Assembly: GCA_040387855.1 (NCBI GenBank)
Contig: JAZKCY010000001.1
Coordinates: 910,922 to 974,921 of the forward strand
From: Patescibacteria group bacterium
GTDB taxonomy: Bacteria > Patescibacteriota > Minisyncoccia > Phycocordibacterales > JAKAEA01
Length of the DNA stretch: 64,000 bases
Direction of reading: 5' to 3'
The notes below the pieces were generated by a model. That model saw only the letters and a list, made by a program, of their open reading frames with translations, was not told the DNA's origin and made no database searches. Shown piece by piece: positions 14,446 through 36,509 of the stretch. Numbering within the stretch: the first letter of the stretch is position 1; each line of letters opens with the position of its first letter. The translations under genes were made by a program, and so were the position numbers.

Positions 14446-14456
14446 TTATCACCATT

Positions 14457-16004
14457 ATGACACCCTACACAAAAACAGCCTTGCCTTCGAAGATGTCGTT
14501 TCTGTTCAACAACATCCCAAAATTCTTGGTATTTGTTGATATTGTGATTGCGATTATTTACACATTTATACTTACCTTCTGGTTTCAGGTATCAAATGTG
14601 TATCTTTTCAGTGCACTTATTGTAGGGCAAGCATTCTCATTGTGGATGGCACTCACCTTCCTTTACACCATTTGGGACATGTCATACATGCCAGAAGGTG
14701 ATGATTCTTTTAGTGAGCCTGTAGATGTATACATTACTGTAGCTGGTGAACCAACAAACATTGTTGAAGAAACACTTGTCGCAGCTCTTGCAATGGAGTA
14801 TCCAAAGTTTAGTGTCTATCTTTTGAACGATGGATTTGTTGCTAAAAAAGACAATTGGAAAGAAATTGAAGACTTAGCTATTAAATACGGTGCTGGATGT
14901 ATCACACGTACAGTTCCTGGAGGAGCAAAAGCAGGAAATATAAATAACGCACTCAAGAATACAACAAGTCCATTTGTTGCTATCTTTGATGCTGATCATA
15001 TTCCTCACAAAGACTTCCTTCAAAAGACAATGCGATACTTTGCAGATGAAAAAATGGCATTCGTACAGTCTCCTCAATACTACAAAAACTATGCTACAAA
15101 TTATGTAACTCGTGGTGCATGGGATCAACAGTCACTCTTTTTCGGATCAATTCTTAAAGGAAAGAATCGTCACAATGCAGTAAGTATGTGTGGAACCAAC
15201 ATGGTTATCCGACGTGAACCCCTAATTGCAGTAGGTGGTATGTGTGATACCAACATTGCTGAAGACTTCGTAACAGGTCTTATGATCCACAAGCTTGGAT
15301 ACAAGTCTACCTATGTTCCTGAAGTACTCGCAGAAGGACTCGCACCAGAAGACTTCCTGTCATATTACAAGCAGCAGCTACGATGGGCACGAGGGAGTTT
15401 GGAAGTGCTTTTCAAGTACAATCCAATCTTTAGTAGAAAACTCACATGGGCACAAAAGATTCAATACATGTCATCTGCTAGTTATTACCTTTCAGGAATC
15501 TTTGTGATCATGAATGCGATAATTCCAATTATCTTCTTCTTTACTGGTTCTGTTCCCTTCCTGATTTCAACAATGGCATTGGCAATTGTGTTTATTCCTT
15601 ATATCTTCTTACTCATTTACAGTCTCCAGCTTTCAACCAACTTCACCTATAGCTTCCAAGCAATCGCATTCTCAATGGCATCATGGTCTATTCATGTCCG
15701 CGCATTATACGAGCTTATTATTGGAAGAAAGAGTGGGTTCGCGATTACTTCAAAAACAGCGATTAAAGGAAACTTTATAAAACTAGTACGTCCTCATATT
15801 GCTTACTATGTGATAGCATTAATTGGTCTCGGTGTTGCTCTCTTCCGAGAAGGATTGAGCGCATCGGTATCAACAAACATGGCATGGGTGCTTTTGAATG
15901 TTGTCATCTTTTACCCATTTATTAAAGCATCACTTCCTGAAAAGGAATCAAAGGAAGAAGCAGCCGTTGTAACTACAAACGCATATGCATTACCAAAACG
16001 ATAA
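14457..16004 (+). CDS. Processive GT2 beta-glycan synthase, BcsA/cellulose-synthase-like catalytic subunit (no PilZ domain).
   Basis: The BcsA catalytic motifs are present: DAD (FDADH), AED (IAEDFVTG), the QxxRW motif as KQQLRWARGSLEV, and VSMCGTN in place of FFCGS. Transmembrane helices flank the catalytic domain. Confidence 0.8.
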   Translation: MTPYTKTALPSKMSFLFNNIPKFLVFVDIVIAIIYTFILTFWFQVSNVYLFSALIVGQAFSLWMALTFLYTIWDMSYMPEGDDSFSEPVDVYITVAGEPTNIVEETLVAALAMEYPKFSVYLLNDGFVAKKDNWKEIEDLAIKYGAGCITRTVPGGAKAGNINNALKNTTSPFVAIFDADHIPHKDFLQKTMRYFADEKMAFVQSPQYYKNYATNYVTRGAWDQQSLFFGSILKGKNRHNAVSMCGTNMVIRREPLIAVGGMCDTNIAEDFVTGLMIHKLGYKSTYVPEVLAEGLAPEDFLSYYKQQLRWARGSLEVLFKYNPIFSRKLTWAQKIQYMSSASYYLSGIFVIMNAIIPIIFFFTGSVPFLISTMALAIVFIPYIFLLIYSLQLSTNFTYSFQAIAFSMASWSIHVRALYELIIGRKSGFAITSKTAIKGNFIKLVRPHIAYYVIALIGLGVALFREGLSASVSTNMAWVLLNVVIFYPFIKASLPEKESKEEAAVVTTNAYALPKR

Positions 16005-17490
16005 AACTAATAATGATCGAAGTGCCTTTCTCCCACTATTGGGCCTCATTATCTTTGTAATTGCAATTGCGTTCCTTTTCTTTACTCAGCAAAGTCTACG
16101 CCTCGATGAAGCGCAAAGTTTATGGCAAACAAGTCATACGCCAACTAAAATATTAAACATCATTGCTCAAGATGTGCATGTACCGTTTTATCACATGATC
16201 TTGCACTTCTGGCAGTTATTTCTTGGTAATACCGTAGAAACAGGACGAGCACTTTCTCTCATTTTCTTTGTGCTCTCAATTCCTGCAATGTACTTCTTAG
16301 GTAAACGTGCATTCAATAGAAATGTTGCGTTGTTTGCAACAACTCTCTATGCTGTTTCACCATTTATGAATTGGTACGGAAGTGAAATTCGAATGTACAG
16401 TTTGCTTACACTTCTTACAATTCTTTCTCAGTATTTCTTCTTAGGAATCTATAAATTACGAGATGGTGATTCTTGGATTGGATATTCTATTGTTGCACTC
16501 TTTGGAATCTTCACCCACTACTTCTTCTTCTTTGTACTTCTTGTACAAGCATTATTCTATTTTATTTATCGACCTGGCTTTGCACCCAATTCACTTAAAA
16601 AATTTATAACTATAGCTGTACTTTTGGTACTCATATTTAGTCCATGGGTCTACTATATGCAAATTCAAGGTAGTGGAAGTACTACAGCTCCAATGCTTAC
16701 TGCTCCATCTACTATTGATGTTTTCAATTCATTCTCACAATTCTTGTTCGGATTCCAGAATGATCACATGAATACCCTTCTTGTTTCATTGTGGCCAATT
16801 ACAGTGCTCTTAGGATTCTTGGCTTTACGAGAAAACGAAAAAGTATCTTCAGACGCAGTGTATATGTTGATGTCGATTTTGATTCCAATGGTAGCTGCGT
16901 TTGTGGTGAGTGTTACCCTTCGACCATTGTTTGTATCACGATATCTGATTCTCACCATACCTTCTTTGTATTTATTTATTGGTTGGGTATTTTCTACCTA
17001 TCCAAAGCAATTGCAGAATGTAGTAAAAGCAGTTCTTATCTTCGCAATGCTTGCTAGTCTTGCAATTGAAATTGTAAGTCCTACAACTCCAACCAAAGAA
17101 AACTACCGAGAAGCTGTAACCTATCTTGAACAGCGCACAACAGCTCAAGATGTTATTGTTCTCTCAGCACCATTCACTCGATACCCTGTAGAATATTATT
17201 ATCGTGGACCAGCAGAACTCACGACCCTTCCAATTTGGAATCAGCTTACTGGTGCTATGCCTCAGTTTAGTGAAGAAAAACTTCCAGAAGAAATCAACAC
17301 TATTAAGCAAGGTCATAAAATTGCCTGGGTTCTCTTAAGTTATGATCAGGGATATTCAGAAACAATCCGACTCTACATGGACAACAACTTTGAACGAATT
17401 GATACCCACGTATTCTCTCCCGACCTCAAACTCTATGTCTATAAATTAAACTACGACGAGCCAATCTTTGGTCAAGCTACATCTCAATAA
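15985..17490 (+). CDS. GT-C fold glycosyltransferase (family GT39/GT83, PMT_2/ArnT-like) membrane protein.
   Basis: The 501-aa polytopic protein has the N-terminal loop LRLDEAQSLWQT with a DE motif, and YAVSPFMNWYGSEIRMY. Its start overlaps the GT2 stop by 20 nt. Confidence 0.6.
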   Translation: MHYQNDKTNNDRSAFLPLLGLIIFVIAIAFLFFTQQSLRLDEAQSLWQTSHTPTKILNIIAQDVHVPFYHMILHFWQLFLGNTVETGRALSLIFFVLSIPAMYFLGKRAFNRNVALFATTLYAVSPFMNWYGSEIRMYSLLTLLTILSQYFFLGIYKLRDGDSWIGYSIVALFGIFTHYFFFFVLLVQALFYFIYRPGFAPNSLKKFITIAVLLVLIFSPWVYYMQIQGSGSTTAPMLTAPSTIDVFNSFSQFLFGFQNDHMNTLLVSLWPITVLLGFLALRENEKVSSDAVYMLMSILIPMVAAFVVSVTLRPLFVSRYLILTIPSLYLFIGWVFSTYPKQLQNVVKAVLIFAMLASLAIEIVSPTTPTKENYREAVTYLEQRTTAQDVIVLSAPFTRYPVEYYYRGPAELTTLPIWNQLTGAMPQFSEEKLPEEINTIKQGHKIAWVLLSYDQGYSETIRLYMDNNFERIDTHVFSPDLKLYVYKLNYDEPIFGQATSQ

Positions 17491-17868: not shown

Positions 17869-17990
17869 ACCTTAATTATGAACTCAATATTTTTTTTGTA
17901 CAGTATATTAGTATGATCATTCTTGCATTTACCTTTGAAACTTGTAGTATTGCCACTGGACGAGATGTCACCCACACAAGGAGGTTAACC

Positions 17991-18464
17991 GTGCCTACGG
18001 AACCTAATACGATTCATGCGGTTTTCGCAGACCAAATTTGCAGCGATTGCTATGTCCCTAGGCCTCACTGGAGGCATTCGGGCGCGTTGGTTCCTGAGGG
18101 AAGCCCGCTTGGGCACTTCTGCGACGACTGCTGGGAAGTCCGCAAGAAGGGAGCAAAACTCCCCCTCGGGACAACGGTCTACACCGACCGTGCCCAGGGC
18201 AAGTACGTCCTACTTCGCTTCCCCGACAAGCTCCCGCCGCCGTCAGGAATTGAGGTTCCCGACATTGCCGCCCTTGGCGAACGTGTCAGAAGGCATCTCG
18301 GCGTGCGTGTCAACAACGCAAGCGTCATGAGAGCAGTGCAGTTCTTTTGGGATCCCAAGCTTGATCAAGAGCTCGTCAACAGGTTCTTAAACGAGCTTCA
18401 TGGCGAGATCCGAATACTCCTCTTCGCCGCGCGCAACGTTCCATACGTCGCTCCGGAAAGCTGA
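17991..18464 (+). CDS. GC-rich hypothetical protein with CxxC...CxxC Zn-ribbon-like motifs (157 aa, GTG start).
   Basis: A perfect AAGGAGG ribosome-binding site lies 7 nt upstream of the GTG at 17991. GC is about 58%. The two Cys pairs are CSDC...CDDC. Confidence 0.5.
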   Translation: MPTEPNTIHAVFADQICSDCYVPRPHWRHSGALVPEGSPLGHFCDDCWEVRKKGAKLPLGTTVYTDRAQGKYVLLRFPDKLPPPSGIEVPDIAALGERVRRHLGVRVNNASVMRAVQFFWDPKLDQELVNRFLNELHGEIRILLFAARNVPYVAPES

Positions 18465-18492
18465 GAAACCTGCCATCAACCTGTGTACCCCG

Positions 18493-18514
18493 CCGACTTC
18501 ATGTCGGTTTTTTT
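18493..18514 (+). terminator. Intrinsic terminator.
   Basis: CCGACTTCATGTCGG followed by TTTTTTT. Confidence 0.45.
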
Positions 18515-18555
18515 ATTGATAGTTTATGAATTTTAATAATAAAAAACAGCATCGG

Positions 18556-18879
18556 TTAGGACTGCTGCCAACGAACTTCTCCTCTTTTGTGCACGAAATC
18601 GTACTCGCCTTCGACAACCCCAATATACTTATACTCGGGGCTATCAACCCAGGCTACAAAGCTCATCCTCCCAAAGTCATCGGAGCTGGGCTGCTTTGTC
18701 CTCCAAACCAAAAAAACGGCGTAAAGCGAGGGACTCCAGGTATCAGACTCAGCCGATACTTTCAGCCCCAATCTCACTCGATGTCGTGCTGGCAACTGAA
18801 TTCTTGCCGCTTGAGCTAGGCACAGAACGATATCTTCGGGTGCCAGCTCATTCATAATACAGAACTTCTGCTGTCCCAT
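18556..18879 (-). CDS. GC-rich hypothetical protein (107 aa).
   Basis: An AAAGGAG ribosome-binding site lies 7 nt upstream of the ATG (MGQQKF...). It is convergent with the 17991 gene. GC is about 50%. Confidence 0.45.
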   Translation of the reverse strand: MGQQKFCIMNELAPEDIVLCLAQAARIQLPARHRVRLGLKVSAESDTWSPSLYAVFLVWRTKQPSSDDFGRMSFVAWVDSPEYKYIGVVEGEYDFVHKRGEVRWQQS

Positions 18880-18944
18880 GATTGAGCTCCTTTTAGCAAT
18901 GAATTTCCCCACGATGATAGTAAATTATTTACTAAGAAATGCAA

Positions 18945-18990
18945 GTAACACAAAACCCGCATACTAATATGCGGGCTTTATGCTTTTTTT
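18945..18990 (-). terminator. Intrinsic terminator downstream of the 19001 hydrolase gene.
   Basis: An 8-bp stem CCCGCATA-ctaa-TATGCGGG with flanking A/T runs. Confidence 0.5.
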
Positions 18991-19000: not shown

Positions 19001-20785
19001 TTATTTCACAAATACATTTACTGCTTTCTGAGAAAATGTAGTATTGCCGGCATTATCTTTTGATACGAAGTTGAGTGTGTATGGACCCTGGCCTTTCCAA
19101 TTCCATCCAATAAAATCTACCAATGCTTCCTTGTGAGGATAATCTTGATTACTATTAAACATTTCAACAAGTCCCCCTCCGTCTACTTGCCAATACATTT
19201 TATAATCTGCAATTGCTTTGTTTGTAAGCATAGCCTTAAGTGGTACAACTCCATTCACAGAGCTACCATCTGTTGGCCACCAGATATTTGTTGAGTATGT
19301 GGTTGGTGTTGGAGTTGGAGTTGTTGGCGGGGTTGTTGTTGCTGGAGGAGTTGTTTGACCTTGGCCAACAGTGATTGTTGAAACATTTCCATTCCAATAA
19401 TATGCAGTCGTCCAATTATTATTGAATACTCCTACTTTTAATTTATAAGTTCCAGCTGTTGTTGGAGTCCATGATGTTGTATACGAACCTGGTTGCCCAT
19501 TTGAGACTGTTTGGTTCTCATAAAACTTCTGAAATATTTTCTGATCCGCAGAGTTATATACTTCAAGGTCTACGATTGCTCCAGATACACTTCCAGAGTT
19601 TGTAAGATCCACTTTGAGACTCACCGGATTATTTACGGTATTCCCCGTTACAGTTCCTGTTGTATTCCAAGCACCTGGTTGTGGCTGGGTTGGGTTTGTA
19701 GGATTTGTGGGTGTTGTTCCTGTTGTGCCATACCACTTTTTAAGAGTGTCAAATGCAGGCTTATTTTGAGGCGTATAATCACGATTTCCTTGTCCTCCAG
19801 CTGCAGGATCAGCTATCCAATCCCACAAATACATACCTTCTATATGTGATTTATCATTCCAAAAGCTAAACAATGCTTCATAATTATTTACTTGCTCTTG
19901 AGCATTGTATGCACCACCCATTCCACTATTCCATGGCTGACTATGAGAATTATCTACACTCATGTATCCAATCTCAGTAAAAATCACCTTCTTTCCATAT
20001 TGATCTGAAATTGGTTTTATTTTCGAGGTATTCCAATTGTTCCATGATGACTTAAGGGCTTCTTGAGATGGATTCCACTGTCCTTCTGCTAGTGGGTAAT
20101 ATCCAGAAATACCTATGTAATCTAATTTATTCCAAAATCCAATATGTGGAACTTCTTCTGCAAAATCTCCCGATCCCCAATTTGCACTATAGGTCAAAAA
20201 TCCTGGAAAACGTGTTCTTAGACTATCAATCATAGTTGACCAGCGCTGAGTATTGTCACTGTTTGACGTATACGTAGCGACGGTAATTAATTCTGATCCC
20301 ACCACAATACCAGCTGCTCCTGTTTGCCTTCCGATATCACCTAAATGATTTAGTTTGGCACTGTAATTTGTATAAAAAGCACTTCTGTTACTAGGATTTA
20401 TACTCGCTCGCCAAACTCCATCATGTGATTCAAGATGGGGTTTAAGAACAACTTTAAAACCGAGTGATTTTGCATAGGTAATACCATCAATCAATGCCGC
20501 GTCTGTAGGAGTATTCCATCCATTCTGAATATCAGATGCTGTTGTATTTGCTACGTAATATGGAATAACTAACGATACAGTGTTTGCACCTGTAGACCGC
20601 AAATTTCGCAACGAAGCACGATACGCCTCGGTTGCATATTCACCACTGGATGTTGGATCTATACTTGCTCCTTTTTGCCAGTCTCCTGTTGCCGCTGATG
20701 CAATGTGTGGACTTGTTAATGCAAACGATCCGACAAAAAGTGCGACTATCACAAACAGACTACAGATTTTTGATGTTGTTTTCAT
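19001..20785 (-). CDS. Secreted TIM-barrel glycoside hydrolase of clan GH-A (GH5/26/113-like) with C-terminal beta-sandwich domains.
   Basis: It has a signal peptide. The candidate acid/base Glu is in VGSELITV and the nucleophile Glu in VIFTEIGY, which is the GH-A arrangement. A T/P-rich linker, an Ig-like domain and a C-terminal module of about 90 aa (W-Q-V-D-G-G...W-N-W-K-G-Q-G-P-Y) follow. Confidence 0.7.
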   Translation of the reverse strand: MKTTSKICSLFVIVALFVGSFALTSPHIASAATGDWQKGASIDPTSSGEYATEAYRASLRNLRSTGANTVSLVIPYYVANTTASDIQNGWNTPTDAALIDGITYAKSLGFKVVLKPHLESHDGVWRASINPSNRSAFYTNYSAKLNHLGDIGRQTGAAGIVVGSELITVATYTSNSDNTQRWSTMIDSLRTRFPGFLTYSANWGSGDFAEEVPHIGFWNKLDYIGISGYYPLAEGQWNPSQEALKSSWNNWNTSKIKPISDQYGKKVIFTEIGYMSVDNSHSQPWNSGMGGAYNAQEQVNNYEALFSFWNDKSHIEGMYLWDWIADPAAGGQGNRDYTPQNKPAFDTLKKWYGTTGTTPTNPTNPTQPQPGAWNTTGTVTGNTVNNPVSLKVDLTNSGSVSGAIVDLEVYNSADQKIFQKFYENQTVSNGQPGSYTTSWTPTTAGTYKLKVGVFNNNWTTAYYWNGNVSTITVGQGQTTPPATTTPPTTPTPTPTTYSTNIWWPTDGSSVNGVVPLKAMLTNKAIADYKMYWQVDGGGLVEMFNSNQDYPHKEALVDFIGWNWKGQGPYTLNFVSKDNAGNTTFSQKAVNVFVK

Positions 20786-20839
20786 GCGGTTTTAATAAAG
20801 TATATAAATTATTTGACGCCGCATTGATTTAACTCTTAC

Positions 20840-20875
20840 ACAACACAACAGCACATTTCTGTGCTGTTGTGTTGT
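20840..20875. other. Perfect 16-bp inverted repeat or hairpin in an intergenic region.
   Basis: ACAACACAACAGCACA-tttc-TGTGCTGTTGTGTTGT. It lies 55-90 nt upstream of the 19001 gene start and downstream of the 20911 gene. Confidence 0.45.
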
Positions 20876-20910
20876 TCTGTATTTTACTAATGTCTGAACG
20901 CCTGTATGAA

Positions 20911-23403
20911 TTAAGGATTTACGTAGATCGTAACATCTTTCTGTCCAATAACTTTCTGTTCAAGATCCTTGGCAATGAATGTGAATACATACGGACCATT
21001 ATCTTTCCAAGTCCATCCTGTAAAATCTACCCATGATTCTTTTGATGTACCGTCTTCACTTGAAACCATATCTACAAGTCCTCCCCCATCTACCTGCCAT
21101 GTGAGTGAATAATCTGCAGCATTTTTTCCGGTTACTCGTGCTTTAAGAAGATGTAAACCTTTCATTACCTGTCCTTCAGTTGGTTCACTTATTTCGAGAA
21201 TAGGTGTAACTGGTGGAGTAACTGGTGGTGTGGTTTGTGACACTACGGTGACTTCAATTGTATATGCAGCACCTGCTGTTCCAGTTCCTGCAGTTCCACT
21301 ATAAGGAACAACACGTACTGTGTGTTTCCCTAATGGAGCATTCCATTTATTGTAATTTGTACCTCCTAGATCGCCTCCAATTCCATATGGTGCATTTGTC
21401 TCAGTTGCGACTTTAACTCCATTGAGGAAGAAAACAAGGCTTCCAGGCTTAGATTTTAGATTGGGAACGATTGTTATATTTGGAGTTTCTGCAAGATTGA
21501 TAGTATCAGTTGCATTCAATACTCGAATTGGCTGATCAGTATCTGAATTGTAGAGTGAAAGTGATTCTATAACTGTGCCAGTTGTAGGTGGAGGAGGTGG
21601 TGGTGTTGTGCTCTTTGCAACAAAGGTTACATCAATAGAAAGAGATGTTCCTATACTTCCCGCTGCACCACTTTGTGAGTAAGGAGTAGCCTTGATTGTA
21701 TGCTTACCAAGTGGAGCACTCCATGGAGTATAATTTCCTCCTGCGTCAGTTCCTAATGCATATGGTGCAGCACTTTCTGTTCGAATAGTTTTACCATCAA
21801 CAAAGAATTTAACACTCTTTGTACCGGTGCCTGCAATTGCTTGGATATTCATTTCAGGATAATCAGCAAGAACCACAGTATCTCCTGTTTTTAATTCTCG
21901 TACCGGTTTGTCAGTCTTAGCATCAATCAACATGAATGCAGAAACCTTATTACCAGTAGGTGTAGTTGGTGGTGTAACAGGTGGAGTCACTGGAGGTGTT
22001 GGAGGAGTACCAGTTCCTTGTGGCACTACAAACGATACGACACTATTTCCCCAGTATAAATTCTTTGACCAATCATTTGAGAATACTCCCACTTTCACAA
22101 CATGCTTTCCTGTTGTTGTTGGGGTCCAATTCACAGTATATTGACCAGGCATACTATTTGAAATAGTTTGATGATCATATACTTGCTGAAAGACTAGCTG
22201 ATTTGATGCATTATAGATTTCAATATCAACAACAACATCTGATGCTGATTGTGAATTTGTAACTTTTACTGAAAGATTTGAGGCAGTATTCACTGGATTG
22301 ATAAGTCCAGATGCTGATGCTCCCCACACTCCTACAGGATTTGGATTACCGGTACCTTTGAACCACTCTGTCATTGTTTGCTGAGCCTTTTTGTTTTGAG
22401 GAGTGAAATGGTTTTCTGATGGCCCTCCAGTATTTGGATCAATGTTCCAGTTCCAAAGATGAACACCTTGCATATATGGCTTGCTATCCCAATATTTGAA
22501 CAATGCTTCATAGAGATTTGCTTGTTCTTGTTCATTTACATTTCCAGCACGACTTCCGTTCCATGGATCTGAATGTGCACCATCAACACTTCTGTATCCT
22601 ATTTCAGTAAAGACGATTGGTTTTTTATAAGTATCGTAAAGAGGCTTAATTTTAGTTGTATCCCATGTTTCCCATGACTTCATAAAACTATCTACTGTTC
22701 CTCCTGACAATGGGTAATATGCTGAAATTCCCAAGTAATCAAGTTTGTCCCAGAAAGCGATATGTGGTGCTTCTTCAGCAAAATCTCCTGCTCCCCAGTT
22801 TGCACTATAGGTAAGTAAACCAGAGTATCGTGCTCGAACATCAGCAATCATTTTCACCCATCGCTGAGTGTTGTCTGGATTTTCAGTGTAGGCAGCTACA
22901 TTAATGAGTTCTGTTCCAATACAAATCTCTTCAGCTTTTGTTTCCTGAGCAATTACAGCAAGTTTGTTCAACATAGCTCCATAACTTGCATACCAGGTAT
23001 TTCGATTTGTTGGTTTTATGAGAGCTCTCCATGTTCCTCCACGTGCTTCTATGTGTGGCTTAAGCATCACCATCATGCCCTGACTATGAACATAATTGAT
23101 AGCATCTTTGAGTGAGGCATCGGTAGGTGTATTCCATCCACTAAGAATCTCAGAACCAGAATTACCTTCTTGGTAATAAGTAACTACAAGAGACACGTAG
23201 TTTGCACCTGTAGATTTCAAATTTCGTACAGACTGCTTAAACTGTTCTCCTGAGAAGTCAGTTGTTGATAACGAATAAATACTGGCGCTTTTTTGCCAGT
23301 TTGAAATATCTGCCTGTGTATTATTTGCTAAAAAAGGCATATAAGAGGCCAAAAGACCTACAATTATAGCCGGAACCATCATTAAGACCATTATCTTTTT
23401 CAT
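20911..23403 (-). CDS. Secreted GH-A clan glycoside hydrolase, a paralog of the 19001 gene, with extra tandem beta-sandwich repeats.
   Basis: The N-terminal catalytic domain is colinear with the 19001 protein (IGTELINV, VFTEIGY). Two repeats of about 110 aa carry APY-x-LG-x-D-x-GG...W-x-APLGKHT. Pro/Thr linkers and the same C-terminal W-Q-V-D-G-G module follow. Confidence 0.7.
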   Translation of the reverse strand: MKKIMVLMMVPAIIVGLLASYMPFLANNTQADISNWQKSASIYSLSTTDFSGEQFKQSVRNLKSTGANYVSLVVTYYQEGNSGSEILSGWNTPTDASLKDAINYVHSQGMMVMLKPHIEARGGTWRALIKPTNRNTWYASYGAMLNKLAVIAQETKAEEICIGTELINVAAYTENPDNTQRWVKMIADVRARYSGLLTYSANWGAGDFAEEAPHIAFWDKLDYLGISAYYPLSGGTVDSFMKSWETWDTTKIKPLYDTYKKPIVFTEIGYRSVDGAHSDPWNGSRAGNVNEQEQANLYEALFKYWDSKPYMQGVHLWNWNIDPNTGGPSENHFTPQNKKAQQTMTEWFKGTGNPNPVGVWGASASGLINPVNTASNLSVKVTNSQSASDVVVDIEIYNASNQLVFQQVYDHQTISNSMPGQYTVNWTPTTTGKHVVKVGVFSNDWSKNLYWGNSVVSFVVPQGTGTPPTPPVTPPVTPPTTPTGNKVSAFMLIDAKTDKPVRELKTGDTVVLADYPEMNIQAIAGTGTKSVKFFVDGKTIRTESAAPYALGTDAGGNYTPWSAPLGKHTIKATPYSQSGAAGSIGTSLSIDVTFVAKSTTPPPPPPTTGTVIESLSLYNSDTDQPIRVLNATDTINLAETPNITIVPNLKSKPGSLVFFLNGVKVATETNAPYGIGGDLGGTNYNKWNAPLGKHTVRVVPYSGTAGTGTAGAAYTIEVTVVSQTTPPVTPPVTPILEISEPTEGQVMKGLHLLKARVTGKNAADYSLTWQVDGGGLVDMVSSEDGTSKESWVDFTGWTWKDNGPYVFTFIAKDLEQKVIGQKDVTIYVNP

Positions 23404-23487
23404 ATAGAGTAATAGACGCTATATGGCCGAGCTTCTTACAGCTTTTTAAAGATGAGGTTTTGATTAAGTAACCCTAAAAATAAGCAA

Positions 23488-23955
23488 TTATAGGCAGGTT
23501 ACATCATCCACAGCACTCAAACTTGAACCTGCAGTTACCTCAGCTTTTCCTAAATAATCCACACAATACAATCCACCGGGAGTAGACTTTAATGGGATTT
23601 CAATTGCCCACCCAGTAGAGGTGTCATTACATGTTGAGCTATCATAATTACCAATTGCATCTACAGATACTGATACATCAGAACTTTCAGCAGCAGCTGC
23701 ATTTACCATAGGATATATTCCCCCTACAGTTCCTTCTGTACAAATGGTGTCATAACTAAATTCGAAACCCGCATTATCTGTTGCAAATTGTTCTGCCTGA
23801 GTACGTGCACTTGCTAGATTAGTTTTTACCGCTGTATCACTTGCCTTACTTCGAGCAACATTAAGAGAAACTAAGATGACAGCAGATAAAAGACTTATTA
23901 TTGCAATAACTACTAAAAGTTCTATAAGAGTAAAACCGTTTTTATTTTTGCTCAT
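23488..23955 (-). CDS. Type IV pilin or pseudopilin with a prepilin-type N-terminal cleavage/methylation domain.
   Basis: MSKNKNG|FTLIELLVVIAIISLLSAV shows the G/F cleavage site and Glu at position +5. Confidence 0.8.
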   Translation of the reverse strand: MSKNKNGFTLIELLVVIAIISLLSAVILVSLNVARSKASDTAVKTNLASARTQAEQFATDNAGFEFSYDTICTEGTVGGIYPMVNAAAAESSDVSVSVDAIGNYDSSTCNDTSTGWAIEIPLKSTPGGLYCVDYLGKAEVTAGSSLSAVDDVTCL

Positions 23956-24001
23956 GTTTACTACATTATAAGACAATAAATTTTATTAACTAGGGATAAC
24001 A

Positions 24002-24031
24002 AAACCACTCATACTTGTATGAGTGGTTTTG
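24002..24031 (-). terminator. Intrinsic terminator downstream of the GH6 gene.
   Basis: AAAACCACTCATAC-ttg-TATGAGTGGTTTT, an 11-bp stem with A/T runs. Confidence 0.55.
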
Positions 24032-24062
24032 TGTTTATTAGTCGTTGCTACGAAATGTTGGT

Positions 24063-25961
24063 TTAGTATGCTGAACGCTTTGCAATATCGAGAGCATATT
24101 CTGGCCACCATTCCCCTGCATTTGGACCTCCGTTACAGTTTCCGTCAGATCCTCCAGGGCCCTTTACCCACAAGAATGCATCCACTAATGGATATCCGGT
24201 ATTTGTAGTCGGCTTTGCTCCGAGAGCTCGTCCCCATGGGTTACACCATTCATTGTTTGGTGCAGAACCAAGTCCGTTTCGGCCGGTATCAATTACGAAG
24301 TGCTTGCCTCCAACCTTATCTGAAACCTGAGTTCCGTACGCAATATTTTTCTGAGTGTCTACGAAGTTTGAAGTATTCAATGCGAATCCATCAGCTTGAG
24401 CAATACCTGCTTGCTTCAATCGATTTGCCATATCATCTGGTGTAATCCATCCAGGGTGACCGGCATCAATGTAGACTGAAATATTACCCTTTGATTTGAA
24501 TGTACTTACGGCATCTTTGATTAGTGAGAATCGTTCTGCTGTTCGTGATCCGAGACAATCAGTAAGTGTTGTACCATCTGGTTCAATTATCATTGCTGCT
24601 TTGTTTCCTCCAATTGCATCAGCAATTTTTCGAATCCAATTTCGATATTCATCTGCACTTCCCACTCCTCCGGCTGAGTACTGACCGCAGTCTCGTCCTG
24701 GAATATTGTAAGCTACAAATACAGGCATTGCTCCTTGAGCTTGTGCATCCTTAATTGCATTTTGCACATCTCGAGTAATATCCCAGTTCCATCCTCCAAG
24801 CCATGTCACACTTGCACCGTTCGCAATTTTCTTAAGCTGTTCTGCATCTGCAGGTCGTGAATTCTGCCATTGCTTAATAACTTGTGAAGCTTCATTATTT
24901 GGATTTACATACAACTTCTGACCACTAATAGGATTACCCGCTATAGCCTGCACAGGAGCCGTTACAGCTTGAGTAATAGTATTTACAACAGTAGCTGTTT
25001 GATTTTTTTTCTGAGTATCTGTTGGAGATACTGTTGGTGATGTAGTAACAAGTGCTGGCTTCGCCACAGTTACAGAACCTACAGACATACTTGTATCCTT
25101 AGTTGTAATTAAGTTTCCAGAATTATCTCTAACAACAAAAGTAATTGCGTATGGCCCAGAACCTTTCCAATTCCATGTAGATACATCTACAGAAGCTTCT
25201 TTGTGGTCACCCACGTTGTTCATTACTGTTTCTCCACCATTATCAACCTTCCAAGACATTTTGTAACTATCTGGAGTTGAATTATCAAGCTTTGCACTGA
25301 AGACAGTAACACCACCTACGGTTGAACCTGAAGTTGGAGCAATAACACTCACGGTTGAATATATTGCTGGAGGCGTGGTTGTTTGTGGTTGCTGAGTAGG
25401 AGCAGGTGCCTGAGCAGATGCTACAGGAACTCCTGCTGCTTGTAGCAATGCACTACCTACTGATGCAGATAATGTTGATGACGCTGCTTCTATTTGTACT
25501 GGGCCTTGTGGTGCATCAGGAGTACTGATTTCAATACTTGTTTCACCAAGTGAATTATTATTTTTATCTAATGCTTTAAAGGTAATCTTGTATGGACCAG
25601 ATCCTCGCCATGTCCATGACTTAAGATCTACCACAGCCTCCTTATGAGGATGATCTGTGTATGAATCATACATAGAATTCATCTGACCGTTATCTACTGA
25701 CCAAGACATAGTGTAATCAGAAACATTTTTGTCCTGTACCATTGCCTTGAATGTTTGTGTATCACCTATCTTTGCCCCCTGAGTTGGCCACCAAAGATTA
25801 ATGTTACCATCTGCGTTTACTCCCGTAGTAACAGTATGAGGGAGTATGTCAGATTTGTTTAACCACTCAAACGCATACACACCACCCAACCAAAGAACTG
25901 TTATTAAGAGAAGTTTTGAAGATAAAGAAAGTGCTTTTTTTAGAGACCTATTGTATATCAT
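24063..25961 (-). CDS. Glycoside hydrolase family 6 (cellulase/cellobiohydrolase-like) with two N-terminal W-x-VDNG modules.
   Basis: Both GH6 signatures are present: VFVAYNIPGRDCGQYSAGG and MIIEPDGTTL. A signal anchor and two copies of the shared 90-aa module lie at the N-terminus. Confidence 0.85.
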   Translation of the reverse strand: MIYNRSLKKALSLSSKLLLITVLWLGGVYAFEWLNKSDILPHTVTTGVNADGNINLWWPTQGAKIGDTQTFKAMVQDKNVSDYTMSWSVDNGQMNSMYDSYTDHPHKEAVVDLKSWTWRGSGPYKITFKALDKNNNSLGETSIEISTPDAPQGPVQIEAASSTLSASVGSALLQAAGVPVASAQAPAPTQQPQTTTPPAIYSTVSVIAPTSGSTVGGVTVFSAKLDNSTPDSYKMSWKVDNGGETVMNNVGDHKEASVDVSTWNWKGSGPYAITFVVRDNSGNLITTKDTSMSVGSVTVAKPALVTTSPTVSPTDTQKKNQTATVVNTITQAVTAPVQAIAGNPISGQKLYVNPNNEASQVIKQWQNSRPADAEQLKKIANGASVTWLGGWNWDITRDVQNAIKDAQAQGAMPVFVAYNIPGRDCGQYSAGGVGSADEYRNWIRKIADAIGGNKAAMIIEPDGTTLTDCLGSRTAERFSLIKDAVSTFKSKGNISVYIDAGHPGWITPDDMANRLKQAGIAQADGFALNTSNFVDTQKNIAYGTQVSDKVGGKHFVIDTGRNGLGSAPNNEWCNPWGRALGAKPTTNTGYPLVDAFLWVKGPGGSDGNCNGGPNAGEWWPEYALDIAKRSAY

Positions 25962-26876: not shown

Positions 26877-28733
26877 ATGAAAAAGATTATTGCCGGAATC
26901 ATTGTTTTCAGTTTTATATCAGTTAGCTTATTCGGTAATAATGCTCAAGCAGCCACAAAAACTACTGACTTACAAAAAAAGACTCCTCAAGTTGAAAGCA
27001 GTAGTGATCCTGAAGTACAGAGAGCCCCCACCCAAGAACTACGTGCTCAAGCCCGCTCAATCAATATTCAAGCACTACTTGCTCCTCAAGCAATAACAAC
27101 AACATCTCTCGGTCCCAATCTTATAGCTAATCCTGGATTCGAAAATGGAAGTCCATCACTTCCTACAAGCTGGCAAAAAAACCGTTGGTCAAACAACCTT
27201 GGTGCTTTCATGTATCCGGTTACTGGAATTGATGGATCAAAAGCCGCAAGTGTTTCAATTACTAGCTATACCGCAGGTGATGCAAAGTGGTTTTTTGCTG
27301 ATGTGCCTGTTACTGCTGGTAAAACATATGAATTTTCAAATTACTCTCAAGCGTCAATCAGTAGCATCCTAACAATAAGATACAAGATGACTGATGGTTC
27401 ATACACATACAAATATTTGAGCGCAGTTCCAGCACAATCTACATTCACTCAAAATAAATACACGATAATTGTTCCAACAAATGCAGTGGCAATGACAGTA
27501 TTTCATCTTATAGATAAAGTAGGAATATTAAGTGTAGACGATTATGAATTGCGAGAAGTAATTACAACAACAATTCCAGATCCCACTCCTACCCCATCTG
27601 AGAATCTTGTTCCCAATGGGAATCTAGAATCCCAGGCAACCAATGGTAATCCTACAGGCTGGAGTAAAAATCGTTGGGGAAATAATACAGGTTCGTTTAC
27701 CTATCCACTATCAGGAGTAAGTGGATCAAAGGCAGCTCGAGTAACAACAACAAGTTATACAACGGGAGATGCAAAGTGGTATTTTGAACCAGTAGCAGTA
27801 TCTGCTGGAACATATGAATATACCGATACCTACAGTTCAACTGTTCCTACAGAACTTACTGCACAATTCATTCACAAAGATGGAAGTATTACATACAAAT
27901 GGCTTGGTACAGCTCCGGTTACCACAGAATTCACCACGATAAAAAAATCTATAACAGTTACTGACAGTGTTGCAAAAGTCACTGTATTACATGTACTACC
28001 TGCAGTTGGTTTCCTGACGATAGATAATGTGAGTTTAGTAAAAGGATCAACTCCTACCCCACCGCCAACACTATTTAGTAATGGTGCTGTTAGCCTCACT
28101 TTTGATGATGGTTGGTTATCTCAATATCAAAACTCAGTTCCAAAAATGAACAGTGTAAACATGAAAGGTACTTTCTATGTAACAAGTCGCCAGCTTTCAG
28201 ATTTTGGATTTACGGGATTCTTTAGCAAAGATACTATCAAGACTATTTATGCTGATGGACATGAAATTGGATCTCATACGCAGACCCATCCTCACCTCAC
28301 TACGTTAAGTCAAACTCAACAGACAACCGAAATCCAAGGATCACGACAAGATCTTCTAGATCTAAATGTGGGACCAATTACTACTTTCGCCTACCCTTTT
28401 GGAGAATATAATGAGATCTCAATTCAAGCAGTAAAAAATAGTGGGTACTCATCAGCACGATCTACAATTGATGGCTATGCAACCGTAGGGACAGATAAAT
28501 ATCAGCTCCCCCGACAATCAGTAGAAGTAGATACATCAATAGAACAAATTCGGCAGTGGATCGATACAGCTATTGCAAATAAGCAGTGGCTCATCCTTGC
28601 ATTCCATAGAATAGATCAGAGCAATGATCAATATGCAGTAACACCAGCAAATTTTAATTTAATCATTGATTATCTTGCACAAAAGAATGCACGAGTTATC
28701 ACAGTAGACCAAGGAATTAAAGCTCTACAATAG
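26877..28733 (+). CDS. Secreted CBM4_9-CBM4_9-CE4 polysaccharide deacetylase.
   Basis: Two repeats of about 150 aa begin NPGFENGS / PNGNLESQ. The carbohydrate esterase family 4 (CE4) motifs follow in order: TFDDGW, HEIGSHTQTH, AYPFGEY and LAFHRI. Confidence 0.8.
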   Translation: MKKIIAGIIVFSFISVSLFGNNAQAATKTTDLQKKTPQVESSSDPEVQRAPTQELRAQARSINIQALLAPQAITTTSLGPNLIANPGFENGSPSLPTSWQKNRWSNNLGAFMYPVTGIDGSKAASVSITSYTAGDAKWFFADVPVTAGKTYEFSNYSQASISSILTIRYKMTDGSYTYKYLSAVPAQSTFTQNKYTIIVPTNAVAMTVFHLIDKVGILSVDDYELREVITTTIPDPTPTPSENLVPNGNLESQATNGNPTGWSKNRWGNNTGSFTYPLSGVSGSKAARVTTTSYTTGDAKWYFEPVAVSAGTYEYTDTYSSTVPTELTAQFIHKDGSITYKWLGTAPVTTEFTTIKKSITVTDSVAKVTVLHVLPAVGFLTIDNVSLVKGSTPTPPPTLFSNGAVSLTFDDGWLSQYQNSVPKMNSVNMKGTFYVTSRQLSDFGFTGFFSKDTIKTIYADGHEIGSHTQTHPHLTTLSQTQQTTEIQGSRQDLLDLNVGPITTFAYPFGEYNEISIQAVKNSGYSSARSTIDGYATVGTDKYQLPRQSVEVDTSIEQIRQWIDTAIANKQWLILAFHRIDQSNDQYAVTPANFNLIIDYLAQKNARVITVDQGIKALQ

Positions 28734-29709
28734 AGTAATCATCAAATTCAACATCCATAAAATCTGTACGAATGCCGGCATACCCGGCATTTGTTAATGG
28801 TGAGGGACCATACGACTCAGCTTTATCTTTTGTTTCAAGGACTAGACGCCAAACTCCGGTCTTACCTTCATCAACATAGAGACGAATAGTGACAGATGCA
28901 TCTTGATTAGTAATCACCTCACTTTTAACTCCTATCCATGTAGCAACTGGCAAAAGATTTGGTTCTGAATCTCGATCATATTTTTGATTCTTTGTACCAA
29001 ATATTTTCTTCATTGCCATCGTATAGTATGCGCCTTTAATTTTTTTCTTAATGACTGCAGCTCCATCAACTCGAATTCCTGTATAGTACAAATCATCACC
29101 TGTTTGATATCGGTTAAACAACAAGACTCCATTCGATGCATTTCGATTAGGGCTCTCACTTAGAATTAAAGAATTAATTTTAAAGTACGCTTGCTGAGTA
29201 AAATCACCCCATACATGAGTATTCACAAGACGAAAAATGTTTTGTGGGTGTGCACCATCATCAGTATCTTCTGGATTACTCCGAATATATCGCTTGTACC
29301 ACGCGTCAGAAGGAGCTAGGTCACCCTGAATTGTTTTGGCAGTTCCATTTGAAACATAGAGACGTCCCCCAGAATTGAGCCACCAATTTTTATTTGAACT
29401 TTTTGAAATCTTTGCTGATTCCTCGAGTGTTTGAGGCGTAAGAAAGGCATCAGAAAACATTCGTGGTTCAGACACAGAAGATGTAGGTTGTGGTCTTTGT
29501 AGTACTGCGATAGCTGAGGTAGCTGAAGCCGAATTTGGCAGACCATCTTCTTTTAGGAAATCTCCTCCCTCCAACTCATTAGATTCTGGATTTAATACTA
29601 TTACAGGTTTACTTTCTCTCGATAACAAAAATATAACTCCAATTCCAATGAAGACAAATAGAATATTAACGATAATGATGTTCTTATTCTTCATGCTATG
29701 CTTGAGCAC
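28717..29709 (-). CDS. Secreted hypothetical protein with a probable jelly-roll (ConA-like) C-terminal domain.
   Basis: It has an N-terminal transmembrane/signal segment and no named family. Its C-terminal region resembles the C-terminal domain of the 29728 protein. Confidence 0.45.
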   Translation of the reverse strand: MLKHSMKNKNIIIVNILFVFIGIGVIFLLSRESKPVIVLNPESNELEGGDFLKEDGLPNSASATSAIAVLQRPQPTSSVSEPRMFSDAFLTPQTLEESAKISKSSNKNWWLNSGGRLYVSNGTAKTIQGDLAPSDAWYKRYIRSNPEDTDDGAHPQNIFRLVNTHVWGDFTQQAYFKINSLILSESPNRNASNGVLLFNRYQTGDDLYYTGIRVDGAAVIKKKIKGAYYTMAMKKIFGTKNQKYDRDSEPNLLPVATWIGVKSEVITNQDASVTIRLYVDEGKTGVWRLVLETKDKAESYGPSPLTNAGYAGIRTDFMDVEFDDYSIVEL

Positions 29710-29727
29710 AGTATACCAGGATAAGCT

Positions 29728-31278
29728 CTAAAAAGCTGGTGCGATAGTGAGACTAGAAACCTCAGAATGAGCTGTAGACATGAGATCCCATATCTTAATT
29801 CCTGCTTTACCTCCCTTCTGTTTAATACTTACATTTCTAAAGAGATGATACCCATTTACATACGTAGTAATTTTGCCGTTTTTTATTTCAACTTTAAATT
29901 CAATAGGTTTATCAGTAACTCGGGTTGATGTAAAAGGTGGAACCAAATCTTTTGTAACACCCTGCACTGTACTTCGCAGGAAATAATAATTACCACTCAA
30001 ACCAAACGCAACATAATTTTGTGCGTCTTTATAGTAAAGCAATAATCCTGTAGAGGCTCCTTGTATACGATCTATATTTGCTGTAACTGAATAATTTTCC
30101 CAATAGTCTTCACCAAAAAGCACCTTTCCACTTTGATCTGGTTCTATAGTTTTTATATGTAGCCCAGTTTCCTGAATTGTAACTTCAGCATCTGTTACCC
30201 CATTTTGAGGAATAACAAAATTAGTATTTGCATAGACAAGGTCTGGTGATATTGGAGCTTGGCTATGAAGTATCTTCACAAGATCAAGCGCAGACATATT
30301 TTTAACTTCTATTCTTCGAATGAAATATGGATCTGTATCTTTATAGTTGTAAACTGGCAGTCGCAATGTTGTTACATTTGAAGGGTCATTGGCTTCGATA
30401 AATGCCATCTTAAAATACTTTCTAATCACCTTTTGGTTAAATGGGATAGCCTCTTCATAGTTTGTATGTTCTTGCTGACCATAATCATTTAATGGAATAG
30501 CATAATATTGAGCATCTAATCCTAGATTGATTTTAATATCTTGAAGTCCAGCAAGATAGTCGGCTTCTACTCGTGCCTCAAATTCTTCTGTTGTCTCAAG
30601 TCGATTCTTATCTTCTAAATACATTTTTGAATTTAGGAATCTTCCCCAATCTTCTTCATCTGATGCATTTTTAACAAGAGGAATCTCTGCATGTGAATCA
30701 CGTCCATGGGCTTCGATCTCCCATCTTCCAGAGTCTCGAAGTGTTCTCAAATCATTCCAATCCAAATAGAATGGATCTTTGTTATTAGCTTTTGCTGTAG
30801 CAACAAACATTGTTGCTTTGAAATTCAGTTTCTTTAAAACATCATCAGTTGTGTAATAACTATCTTTTCGGCCATCATCAAAACTAATGATTATAGGCTT
30901 TGGAGGAAGCGTAAATGTTCCCTGTCGGAATTGATCGTATTCAGCTACTGATATTGTGGTAAAACCACTTTGCTTTAATAGCTCCAGCTGCTGGATAAAA
31001 TTCTTTATTGTTGTATTTGTGTCATCCTTTACAGTATTTACGCCGTGATACATAAGCATTGGTACCGCTAATGCAGGAGATGACGACACACTCTGTACTT
31101 CAATATTGGCAAACACACGTGGCTTGTAGGTGTAATACTCAATTGAATATGGGTTGAGCTTTCTCAACGTATTTTGAGCCTCTGGGTAAAAAGCATTAAT
31201 CGAAATACCAATACTTACAATAAGTACTACACATAATACTAATCTAAACCACGGTGAATGTTTTATCGGGTGCCCCAT
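29728..31278 (-). CDS. Membrane-anchored CE4 polysaccharide deacetylase (PgaB/NodB-like) with a C-terminal ConA-like domain.
   Basis: The CE4 motifs are MLMYHGV, IISFDDGRKDSY and EAHGRDSH. It overlaps the upstream GT2 gene by 16 nt, which indicates translational coupling. Confidence 0.75.
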   Translation of the reverse strand: MGHPIKHSPWFRLVLCVVLIVSIGISINAFYPEAQNTLRKLNPYSIEYYTYKPRVFANIEVQSVSSSPALAVPMLMYHGVNTVKDDTNTTIKNFIQQLELLKQSGFTTISVAEYDQFRQGTFTLPPKPIIISFDDGRKDSYYTTDDVLKKLNFKATMFVATAKANNKDPFYLDWNDLRTLRDSGRWEIEAHGRDSHAEIPLVKNASDEEDWGRFLNSKMYLEDKNRLETTEEFEARVEADYLAGLQDIKINLGLDAQYYAIPLNDYGQQEHTNYEEAIPFNQKVIRKYFKMAFIEANDPSNVTTLRLPVYNYKDTDPYFIRRIEVKNMSALDLVKILHSQAPISPDLVYANTNFVIPQNGVTDAEVTIQETGLHIKTIEPDQSGKVLFGEDYWENYSVTANIDRIQGASTGLLLYYKDAQNYVAFGLSGNYYFLRSTVQGVTKDLVPPFTSTRVTDKPIEFKVEIKNGKITTYVNGYHLFRNVSIKQKGGKAGIKIWDLMSTAHSEVSSLTIAPAF

Positions 31279-33420: not shown

Positions 33421-33723
33421 TTATATTAGGCAATGTTGAGCTTCCTCTCTAATTCTCCTTTCTATTTTGCTTTTAAAAAAAGTAAGCGCCCATGGTACTT
33501 TCGCATCTAGTATTACTTCCATCTTTCCCACTATAAGTGTTCCGGATAGTTCATATCCCTTTGTTTTAAAACTGAATGTGCATTCATGACTATCCCATTC
33601 CTCCTTAAGATTAGTTATCTCTTTCGAATACTTTTCTTTTACATTATCTAATAAATTTTTGACGCATGAGATAGCTTCTTCTTGAGTCTTATTGTGAGGA
33701 ATCTTAATAGTTATGTTTGCCAT
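33421..33723 (-). CDS. PHA_gran_rgn-like small protein (putative polyhydroxyalkanoic acid system protein family).
   Basis: The 100-aa protein has a pattern (IKIPHNKTQEEA...KYSKEI...W..H.C.F...G..L.G.L...) that fits TIGR02610-like proteins. Confidence 0.45.
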   Translation of the reverse strand: MANITIKIPHNKTQEEAISCVKNLLDNVKEKYSKEITNLKEEWDSHECTFSFKTKGYELSGTLIVGKMEVILDAKVPWALTFFKSKIERRIREEAQHCLI

Positions 33724-33789
33724 ACCTACAAAAGACGAAGTAGATGAGTGTCTGTTACGATGATTGACAGTACATCAGTTTATTTATAA

Positions 33790-34050: not shown

Positions 34051-34076
34051 CGATAGAGTACCCCTCTATCTTTTTT
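34051..34076 (+). terminator. Intrinsic terminator ending the GC-rich element.
   Basis: GATAGAG-taccc-CTCTATC followed by TTTTTT. Confidence 0.5.
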
Positions 34077-34077
34077 A

Positions 34078-34638: not shown

Positions 34639-34655
34639 AAATAATATACCTAAAC

Positions 34656-36500: not shown

Positions 36501-36509
36501 AAGGTAATA

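Follow-up and report, generated by a model that had tools for sequence, protein, structure and literature searches.

We analysed a 64-kb stretch of a Patescibacteria metagenome-assembled genome (the window; parent contig 981,549 bp) in which three large minus-strand genes encode secreted enzymes, here called proteins A, B and C, that share a module of ~96 amino acids (aa), here called MOD. All three open reading frames (ORFs) had been claimed in an earlier reading of the DNA letters (the sequence-only reading), and all three were found. Protein A (19001-20785, minus strand, 594 aa) consists of a signal peptide, a glycoside hydrolase family 113 (GH113) domain (aa 46-353), a linker, a second immunoglobulin-like (Ig-like) domain that we call MID (19361-19687), a Pro/Thr linker and, at the extreme C-terminus, the first MOD copy (19004-19291, aa 499-594). 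Protein B (20911-23403, minus strand, 830 aa) begins in the same way, with a signal peptide, GH113 and MID (22012-22335), and continues with a linker, two Big_7-like Ig repeats (21226-21942, aa 488-604 and 612-726), a further linker and the second MOD copy, again at the extreme C-terminus (20914-21201, aa 735-830). Protein C (24063-25961, minus strand, 632 aa) has the reverse layout: an N-terminal hydrophobic signal or anchor is followed by the third MOD copy (25518-25808, aa 52-148), a linker, the fourth MOD copy (25074-25358, aa 202-296), a linker and a GH6 catalytic domain (24075-24938, aa 342-629). All three proteins thus start with a hydrophobic signal-type N-terminus, and the Pro/Thr linkers of the sequence-only reading can be seen in the protein sequences.

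Pfam assigned the catalytic domains of A and B to GH113 (E 3.5e-48, 164.9 bits and E 4.5e-56, 190.8 bits, respectively; cut-off 27 bits), and both carry, besides the score, the two catalytic-Glu motifs of the barrel of clan GH-A, the clan to which GH113 belongs. When aligned with AxMan113A (5ylh), A and B keep the catalytic Glu residues in G-S/T-E-L and F-T-E-I-G-Y, and their nearest solved relatives are the beta-1,4-mannanases 5ylh, 4cd6 and 3civ (E ~1e-24 to 1e-26). The two proteins are 49% identical across GH113 and MID, and they are paralogs, of which B has gained the two Big_7-like repeats. These repeats, which had been noticed as further units of ~110 aa, are real: each is ~115 aa long, they are 40% identical to each other (E 4e-28), and Big_7 (PF17957) scores 32.7 bits on the whole of protein B (cut-off 24.1), either repeat alone remaining below threshold. 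The catalytic domain of C matched Glyco_hydro_6 with E 2e-62 and 212.2 bits (cut-off 27 bits), and its RDCG, EPDG, DAGH and GGSDG motifs are aligned and intact. With ~290 aa it has an endoglucanase-like length, and the nearest solved structures are Mycobacterium tuberculosis Cel6 (1uoz, E 7.6e-71) and Thermobifida fusca E2 (E 3e-53). The label "cellulase-type", under which the sequence-only reading had grouped the three enzymes, therefore fits C and its endoglucanase relatives and is loose for A and B, since these two GH-A enzymes belong to GH113 and have mannanase relatives. In NCBI, A (MES2437353) and B are each labelled "hypothetical protein".

The four MOD copies can be aligned over ~96 aa, with 38-47% identity and 21 invariant columns, and pairwise BLASTP among them gave E values of 1e-18 to 3e-28. 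A six-frame hidden Markov model scan of the window recovered exactly four copies, all of them in A, B and C. The module, claimed to occur once in A, once in B and twice in C, is thus real and common to the three enzymes. No similarity was detected between MOD and the MID or Big_7-like domains of the same proteins (BLASTP E > 0.1; hhalign probability 0.1%), so that the copies align better mutually than with other beta-sandwiches, as had been anticipated. The proposed core motif was likewise borne out across the family, in the forms WWPT, Y-x-M-x-W-x-V-D-G-G, H-K-E-x-x-V-D, W-x-W-x-G-x-G-P-Y and F-x-A-K-D.

The segments flagged as the module in A, B and C are covered by no Pfam model. The four window copies gave sub-threshold Pfam matches only, to PKD, PKD_4 and Bact_surface_Ig-like (best 18.8 bits, E 0.0017; the gathering scores are 23.5 bits for PKD, PF00801, and 27 bits for PKD_4). 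When 70 diverse family members were scanned singly, none reached a Pfam gathering score: weak PKD matches, the only recurrent signal, appeared in 19 of the 70 (best E 1.4e-4), followed by PKD_4, InlK_D3, Bact_surface_Ig-like, Big_1 and Big_13. MOD therefore does not belong to PKD or PKD_4 as these families are defined, nor to Big_7, which matched neither the window copies nor any of the 70 members. Among carbohydrate-binding modules (CBMs), no model matched the 70 members in Pfam at E ≤ 0.1 and no CBM chain appeared in the PDB sequence searches, CAZy-only families that have neither a Pfam model nor a structure lying outside this search. An NCBIfam scan returned no match, and PDB sequence searches with 4-sequence and 70-sequence profiles returned nothing better than E 0.02. 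The sequence-only reading, which could name no family for the module and held that its novelty would fall if it scored significantly against known CBM or Big families, was upheld on both counts. A description of MOD in the searchable literature was not found either.

The AlphaFold2 model of MOD, computed for the copy of protein A, is an all-beta sandwich of eight strands with a predicted local distance difference test (pLDDT) score of 97.1 and a predicted template-modelling (pTM) score of 0.87. It has the two-sheet Greek-key arrangement, within the 7-9 strands, of the Ig-like or E-set beta-sandwich fold. Foldseek found no solved structure at E ≤ 1e-3; the best structural matches were the Ig-like modules of mannanases and the X1 module of CbhA. 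Because the model is an Ig-like sandwich and the PKD matches stay below threshold, MOD is, as modelled, a new sequence family within the known Ig-like (E-set, distantly PKD-like) superfamily, and its fold is not new. The module was thus undescribed, as had been thought, in the sense that no curated family claims it, but not in the sense of a new fold.

The relatives of MOD differ from it in sequence and in setting. The mannanase Ig-like modules (Cellulomonas fimi Man26A, 2bvt; Thermotoga GH5, 6tn6) are 13-15% identical to MOD, with no detectable sequence relationship. Those modules pack against the catalytic domain, whereas MOD is tethered by Pro/Thr linkers at or close to one end of the protein, can be present in tandem and shows a signature of its own (WWPT, WQVDGG, HKE, WxW). 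PKD (PF00801, PF18911) and the Big_x families have the Ig-like fold in common with MOD, and their weak matches fall mainly on the C-terminal strand pair Y-x-I-T-F-x-A-x-D-x-x-G-N, while the N-terminal two-thirds of MOD, with WWPT, QPFKA, YxMYWQVDGG and PHKE, have no counterpart in these models. In chitinases and proteases, PKD domains are able to attach to insoluble polymers via exposed Trp residues. A giant protein of 4676 aa (P0050) matches the MOD profile in 35 stretches, each time only at profile positions 101-131, the region of the strand pair Y-x-I-T-F-x-A-K-D-x-x-G-N. This protein, which came from the representative library, shows that the C-terminal motif is a general feature of numerous Ig repeats in bacteria, which explains the weak PKD and Big matches. 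MID, for its part, is an unassigned Ig-like domain that the sequence-only reading had overlooked. Most GH113-MOD proteins and a number of GH6 carriers have it; CARDB and the glycan-binding domain of Wzt are among its structural neighbours, and a word-indexed homolog search with it returned one protein.

MOD forms a large family. An exhaustive profile search of 1.84 billion representatives yielded 510 at E ≤ 1e-3, of which 387 also passed E ≤ 1e-10 and 196 passed E ≤ 1e-30, whereas a word-indexed homolog search had returned 17 short fragments and falsely suggested rarity. In a genome survey with one genome per GTDB species, 124 MOD loci were confirmed and 80 were kept for counts; counts of genomic carriers rest on 94 MOD genes. 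Candidate Phyla Radiation (CPR) labels are attached to 56 of the 80 loci, among them Paceibacterota/Parcubacteria, Saccharibacteria and Adler-, Kaiser-, Taylor-, Magasanik-, Doudna-, Peri-, Wildermuth- and Liptonbacteria; a further 10 are unclassified ("bacterium"), and 14 are labelled Acidobacteriota, Gammaproteobacteria-type, Chloroflexia or Clostridia. With a locus GC content of 44-68%, at least some of the non-CPR occurrences look genuine rather than mis-binned. Their architectures include GH5-fn3-MOD, fn3-MOD, M23-Glucodextran_B-MID-MOD and CHAP-MOD (the Acidobacteriota-labelled loci L047, L067 and L079, and also L049 and L026). A viral origin, or a role as the wall-binding domain of a lysin, was rejected: among 2.9 million viral contigs there was a single match, itself a MOD-MOD-GH6 gene.

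Nearly all MOD carriers are secreted hydrolases, and the architectures seen in the window are the dominant ones of the family. GH113-MID-MOD was found in 36 genomic carriers and 32 representatives, and MOD-MOD-GH6 or MOD-GH6 in 26 genomic carriers and 27 representatives. The remaining partners are GH5, GH8, GH12, GH26, GH44, Peptidase_M23, CHAP, S8 and C14. Of 114 identifiable catalytic partners, ~104 belong to beta-1,4-glycanase families (GH113, GH6, GH5, GH8, GH12, GH26, GH44) and 8 are M23 or CHAP peptidoglycan hydrolases; fn3, PA14, CBM2 or CBM6 sometimes accompany the module, and MOD arrays reach five copies (in P0018). Position depends on the partner. MOD ends at the final residue in all genomic GH113, GH5, GH8, M23 and CHAP carriers, and it is N-terminal to the catalytic domain in all genomic GH6 carriers, usually right after the signal peptide and often in tandem; in five GH6 carriers MID precedes it. 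In their placement at the ends behind Pro/Thr linkers, their tandem copies, their GH5, GH6, GH8 and GH12 partners and their many conserved aromatics, MOD and classical CBMs (CBM2, CBM3, CBM6) are alike. Modules mostly cluster by shared catalytic partner, and paralogs of the same locus are less similar (median identity 51%) than a module is to its best counterpart in another genome (60%). Both patterns imply that the MOD fusions are old, and they rule out recent intragenomic shuffling of MOD.

Despite a median pairwise identity of ~48% across 282 MOD copies, a set of residues is 83-99% conserved each (MOD numbering): W4, W5, P6, G14, Q16-P17-F18-K19-A20, Y30, M32, W34, V36, D37, M44, H53-K54-E55, V58, D59, W63, W65, Y71 and F75. 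An Ig core needs neither five near-invariant Trp residues nor an H-K-E charged triad, and the adjacency of conserved strand residues (W4-W5, H53-K54-E55) in the predicted strands would place some of them towards solvent. This bears on the simplest account of MOD, namely that it is an inert Ig domain whose only task is to space the enzymes, keep them soluble or make them stable, as numerous Ig-like, Fn3 and X1 modules do in glycoside hydrolases. Such a role would suit the structural matches to mannanase Ig-like modules and to CbhA X1, and the presence of other Ig-like spacers (MID, Big_7) in these same proteins. A spacer is, however, expected between domains, yet MOD comes last after a flexible linker in GH113, GH5, GH8, M23 and CHAP proteins and first after the signal peptide in most GH6 proteins, and the Trp residues and the charged triad, some of which the predicted strands would turn outwards, go far beyond the demands of an Ig core. 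We therefore consider an inert role very improbable.

Next to the three enzymes, and just outside the coordinates of the sequence-only reading, lies a plus-strand cassette of three genes (13249-17490). The first (13249-14445) encodes a BcsZ/CelA-like endoglucanase-type GH8 protein (Glyco_hydro_8, E 1.5e-45), with CelA (1cem, E 1e-28) and BcsZ (3qxf, E 4e-20) as PDB relatives. The second (14457-16004, 515 aa) encodes a BcsA-like processive glycosyltransferase of family 2 (GT2) with Pfam matches to Glyco_tranf_2_3 and Cellulose_synt. Against Escherichia coli BcsA (7lby) it aligns over aa 53-507 with E 2.2e-59, DADH, AED and QQLRWARG being aligned; it thus has the DxD, (T)ED and QxxRW motifs and the C-terminal transmembrane channel region of BcsA-type synthases. 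No Pfam match to PilZ was found in it, and the protein ends, at 515 aa, before the PilZ domain of BcsA starts. The third gene (15985-17490) encodes a polytopic membrane protein of the GT-C-like PMT_2 family (Pfam E 1e-11), for which a PDB sequence relative was not found. PMT_2, a protein-O-mannosyltransferase-like family, is a constant neighbour of secreted enzymes with long Pro/Thr-rich linkers. In Actinobacteria, Pmt enzymes O-mannosylate Pro/Thr-rich linkers of this kind. PMT_2 might accordingly glycosylate the linkers, or might decorate the glucan, rather than substitute for BcsB. The co-occurrence of PMT_2 with GH113, a mannanase family, is curious.

The same cassette accompanies MOD genes in other genomes. 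The most recurrent neighbours of MOD genes in the 80 loci were the GT2 (30 loci), PMT_2 (24) and GH8 (23), followed by an OmpR-type regulator (12), and the gene order GH8, GT2, PMT_2 is conserved across MOD loci. A cassette gene was present in the locus for 24 of 31 MOD-GH6 genes, within 3 kb for 23 of them and within 500 bp for 16, while adjacency within 3 kb in a genome of ~1 Mb would be expected by chance in ~1-2% of cases (our own estimate rather than a computed value). MOD-GH6 and PMT_2 typically stand tail-to-tail, with gaps of -45 to +30 bp. For other MOD carriers, a cassette gene was in the locus in 7 of 15 cases, and GH5-MOD (L051, L071), GH113-MOD (L017, L061) and CHAP-MOD (L026) genes are co-oriented with a cassette gene at a distance of 10-212 bp. 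The layout of the window matches the conserved one, except that two GH113 genes and a pilin gene are inserted between PMT_2 and GH6. The three MOD enzymes and the cassette thus form a locus that is conserved across CPR lineages. Around the cassette, many CPR loci (L024, L029, L036, L044, L055, L076, L078 and L080) have two or three BcsA-like GT2 genes, some of them divergent, which suggests duplication or diversification of the synthase.

The locus resembles known cellulose-synthesis systems without being identical to any. Bcs and Ccs operons likewise pair a BcsA-type GT2 (DxD, ED, QxxRW) with a cognate endoglucanase, which is GH8 in the case of BcsZ and GH5 in the case of the clostridial CcsZ (PMC7710045). 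In the CPR locus, by contrast, PilZ is absent, PMT_2 is the constant third gene and additional MOD hydrolases are present; BcsB, CcsB and BcsC were detected neither next to the genes in the window nor in the ten neighbour clusters that recur most often, although remote homologs could escape such a search. In Streptomyces, the GH6 enzyme CslZ is encoded beside the BcsA-like CslA and is needed, together with LpmP, to lay down the glycan across the wall, which involves local remodelling of peptidoglycan; CslZ has no CBM or accessory module (PMC9040799). The cslA-glxA-cslZ (+lpmP) cluster shares with the CPR loci a monoderm BcsA-like synthase clustered with a GH6 gene, in some loci divergently: in L068 and L074 the GT2 and GH6 genes are head-to-head, as are cslA and cslZ. 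In the CPR locus, GH8 and PMT_2 replace GlxA and LpmP, and GH113-, GH5- or CHAP-MOD enzymes are added. We found no paper in the searchable literature that links a cellulose synthase locus to Patescibacteria.

On balance, we think it probable that this is the CPR form of a locus for cellulose-type synthesis and remodelling, and that MOD is its glycan- or envelope-binding tag. The BcsA-like synthase would extrude a cellulose-like beta-1,4-glucan at the cell surface, and the secreted hydrolases would trim, release or remodel this glucan or clear its way through the wall, in parallel with BcsZ (GH8), clostridial CcsZ (GH5) and Streptomyces CslZ (GH6). MOD would serve as a non-catalytic tag that holds the enzymes on the glycan or envelope through its conserved aromatic and charged surface, acting singly or, for avidity, in tandem. 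A carbohydrate- or surface-binding role of MOD, which the sequence-only reading had also suggested, is plausible. It would explain the terminal or near-terminal placement behind flexible linkers, the tandem copies, the conservation of the putative surface across phyla and the fact that beta-1,4-glycanases have MOD in common with a smaller number of peptidoglycan hydrolases. We infer the binding activity and the ligand of MOD, the identity of the polymer and the division of labour among the enzymes.

Several observations weigh against this interpretation. The product of the GT2 is taken to be a cellulose-like glucan by likeness of sequence, and that the conserved Trp, His and Glu residues lie exposed on the surface is predicted from strand periodicity only. 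The nearest structural relatives of MOD, the mannanase Ig-like modules and X1, are not proven binding modules, and the occurrence of bona fide CBM2 or CBM6 in some carriers means that MOD could itself be something other than the substrate-binding module. Characterised GH113 enzymes are beta-mannanases, not glucanases or cellulases, and the M23, CHAP, S8 and C14 partners do not act on glucans. Carriers with GH113 only had a cassette gene in the locus in 13 of 48 cases and within 3 kb in 7 of 48; given this weak linkage, the two GH113 enzymes of the window may have a different role. A reverse search from the synthase on metagenome contigs gave only five loci, of which the one informative, close cassette locus (L082) had no MOD gene in the 8 kb covered; so small a yield says little either way.

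A part of this evidence fits a nutritional explanation, in which a fermentative CPR cell feeds by means of the three hydrolases, as common secreted glycanases that break down polysaccharide from plants or algae outside the cell, or the matrix of a host or biofilm. MOD would then be a conventional CBM for this external substrate and its proximity to the cassette would reflect a general "polysaccharide island". The partners are overwhelmingly classical biomass families (GH5, GH6, GH8, GH12, GH26, GH44, GH113), signal peptides and Pro/Thr linkers are present as in free cellulases, GH113-MOD genes are often away from the cassette, and the window has a second polysaccharide gene set at 26.9-32.6 kb. 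Enzymes for feeding would nevertheless hardly be expected to be juxtaposed with PMT_2 repeatedly across many CPR classes, as MOD-GH6 genes are, at gaps of a few bp and far above the chance level we estimate, or to be co-oriented with cassette genes at 10-212 bp, as GH5-, GH113- and CHAP-MOD genes are. Sugar-uptake genes do not recur among the conserved neighbours, and hydrolases are integral to known cellulose-synthesis loci (PMC7710045, PMC9040799). We regard the nutritional explanation as rather unlikely.

MOD might instead bind no glycan substrate and act as an envelope anchor or protein-docking tag, directed at the cell's own wall, an S-layer, the extracellular loops of PMT_2 or the synthase complex. 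A tag of this kind could be shared by enzymes of unrelated substrates (glycanases, M23, CHAP, S8, C14), could sit at or near a terminus in tandem copies, could stand alongside true CBM2 or CBM6 domains in the same protein and would make sense of the close association with PMT_2. Against it, the same residues are near-invariant in very divergent CPR phyla and even in non-CPR bins, as would be expected of a ligand of constant chemistry more than of a protein partner that co-evolves; in addition, the neighbours include no recurrent candidate scaffold and many MOD genes lie far from any PMT_2. We consider such a tag improbable. Two more specific assignments were rejected. A dockerin/cohesin-like assembly lacks a recurrent scaffold partner among the neighbours. 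A C-terminal sorting domain of the type IX secretion system (T9SS) is at odds with MOD being also N-terminal and tandem, and with carriers that are mostly CPR, a group not known to have T9SS. The match of one MID copy to Por_Secre_tail was insignificant (E 0.06).

Returning to the cellulose-type synthesis and remodelling locus, we tentatively propose a bolder version, which is possible rather than probable: Patescibacteria would have a minimal surface-glycan system independent of cyclic di-GMP, made up of a PilZ-less synthase, GH8 and PMT_2, with MOD, largely restricted to this lineage, as the common address tag that brings a whole set of wall- and glycan-remodelling enzymes (GH6, GH113, GH5, M23, CHAP) to the glycan or to its exit site. 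If true, monoderms would have a novel kind of apparatus for secreting and remodelling exopolysaccharide, on which the attachment of these episymbionts to hosts or surfaces could depend. A large share of bacterial diversity falls to CPR/Patescibacteria, whose surface biology is barely known; the repeated pairing of enzymes and cassette suggests that many of them synthesise and actively remodel a cellulose-like surface glycan. MOD goes unannotated in 510 or more representative clusters and is the mark of a set of secreted hydrolases that recurs, so that hundreds of CPR proteins would be better annotated if the family had a name and a model. If MOD binds the glycan, it is a new CBM family and a useful polymer probe; if it binds nothing, it is one more Ig-like accessory domain. 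The novelty of MOD is that of a sequence family within a known fold, and the locus varies a known kind of system in a new way; neither the fold nor the enzyme families are out of the ordinary.

Between B and C, on the same strand, lies a type IV pilin or pseudopilin-like gene (23488-23976, minus strand, ATG at 23955). The sequence-only reading had called it a bona fide pilin gene, and the assignment is sound: the canonical G|FTLIE prepilin motif is present (KNG|FTLIELLVV), and both N_methyl (E 1.8e-9, 37.2 bits; cut-off 21.2) and TIGR02532 of NCBIfam (34.2 bits; cut-off 16.3) were passed. The same reading had linked the enzymes to pili, so that MOD would attach to pili or to pilus-bound surfaces and the enzymes would be displayed there. 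The position of the gene within the cluster and its being the sole pilin-like ORF in the window could be taken to favour this idea. The neighbourhood is not conserved, however: 0 of 94 MOD genes had a pilin-like ORF within 1 kb, only five such ORFs occurred in the 1.07 Mb of related loci, and tblastn with the window pilin gave one weak match, confined to the N-terminal helix and 5 kb from a MOD gene. Three near-perfect hairpins with stems of 15-17 bp occupy the gaps after A (18947-18984), between B and A (20840-20875) and between C and the pilin gene (23999-24032). As probable terminators or processing sites, they would divide the cluster into the transcription units C, pilin-B and A, which also argues against pilus-associated display. 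The link to pili was therefore not sustained, and we find it hardly credible; the pilin looks like a lineage-specific passenger, incidental to the cluster.

Between PMT_2 and the gene of protein A there is a GC-rich island (17950-18900; 55-62% GC in 200-nt windows, compared with ~37% for the genome), which is probably a foreign insertion. It contains two small convergent ORFs (~17991-18464, plus strand; 18556-18912, minus strand) that match no Pfam family, and an intrinsic terminator follows the plus-strand ORF at ~18490-18515. Rfam gave nothing at the gathering threshold across the window, with sub-threshold noise only in the GC-rich gap.

The whole region appears to be devoted to cell-surface functions. 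Beyond protein C, the window encodes a secreted polysaccharide deacetylase that starts with two long repeats in its N-terminal part (26877-28733, plus strand), a second polysaccharide deacetylase (29728-31278, minus strand) and a chitin-synthase/NodC-like GT2 (31263-32567, minus strand). This gene set (26877-32567) suggests a polymer of the chitin or poly-N-acetylglucosamine (PNAG) type that is subject to deacetylation. It is followed by an envelope-related run on the minus strand (33421-40739) that encodes a DsbB-like protein, a secreted CAP-domain protein, a BrkB-like protein, DoxX, the undecaprenyl-pyrophosphate phosphatase BacA and a DUF2914 protein.

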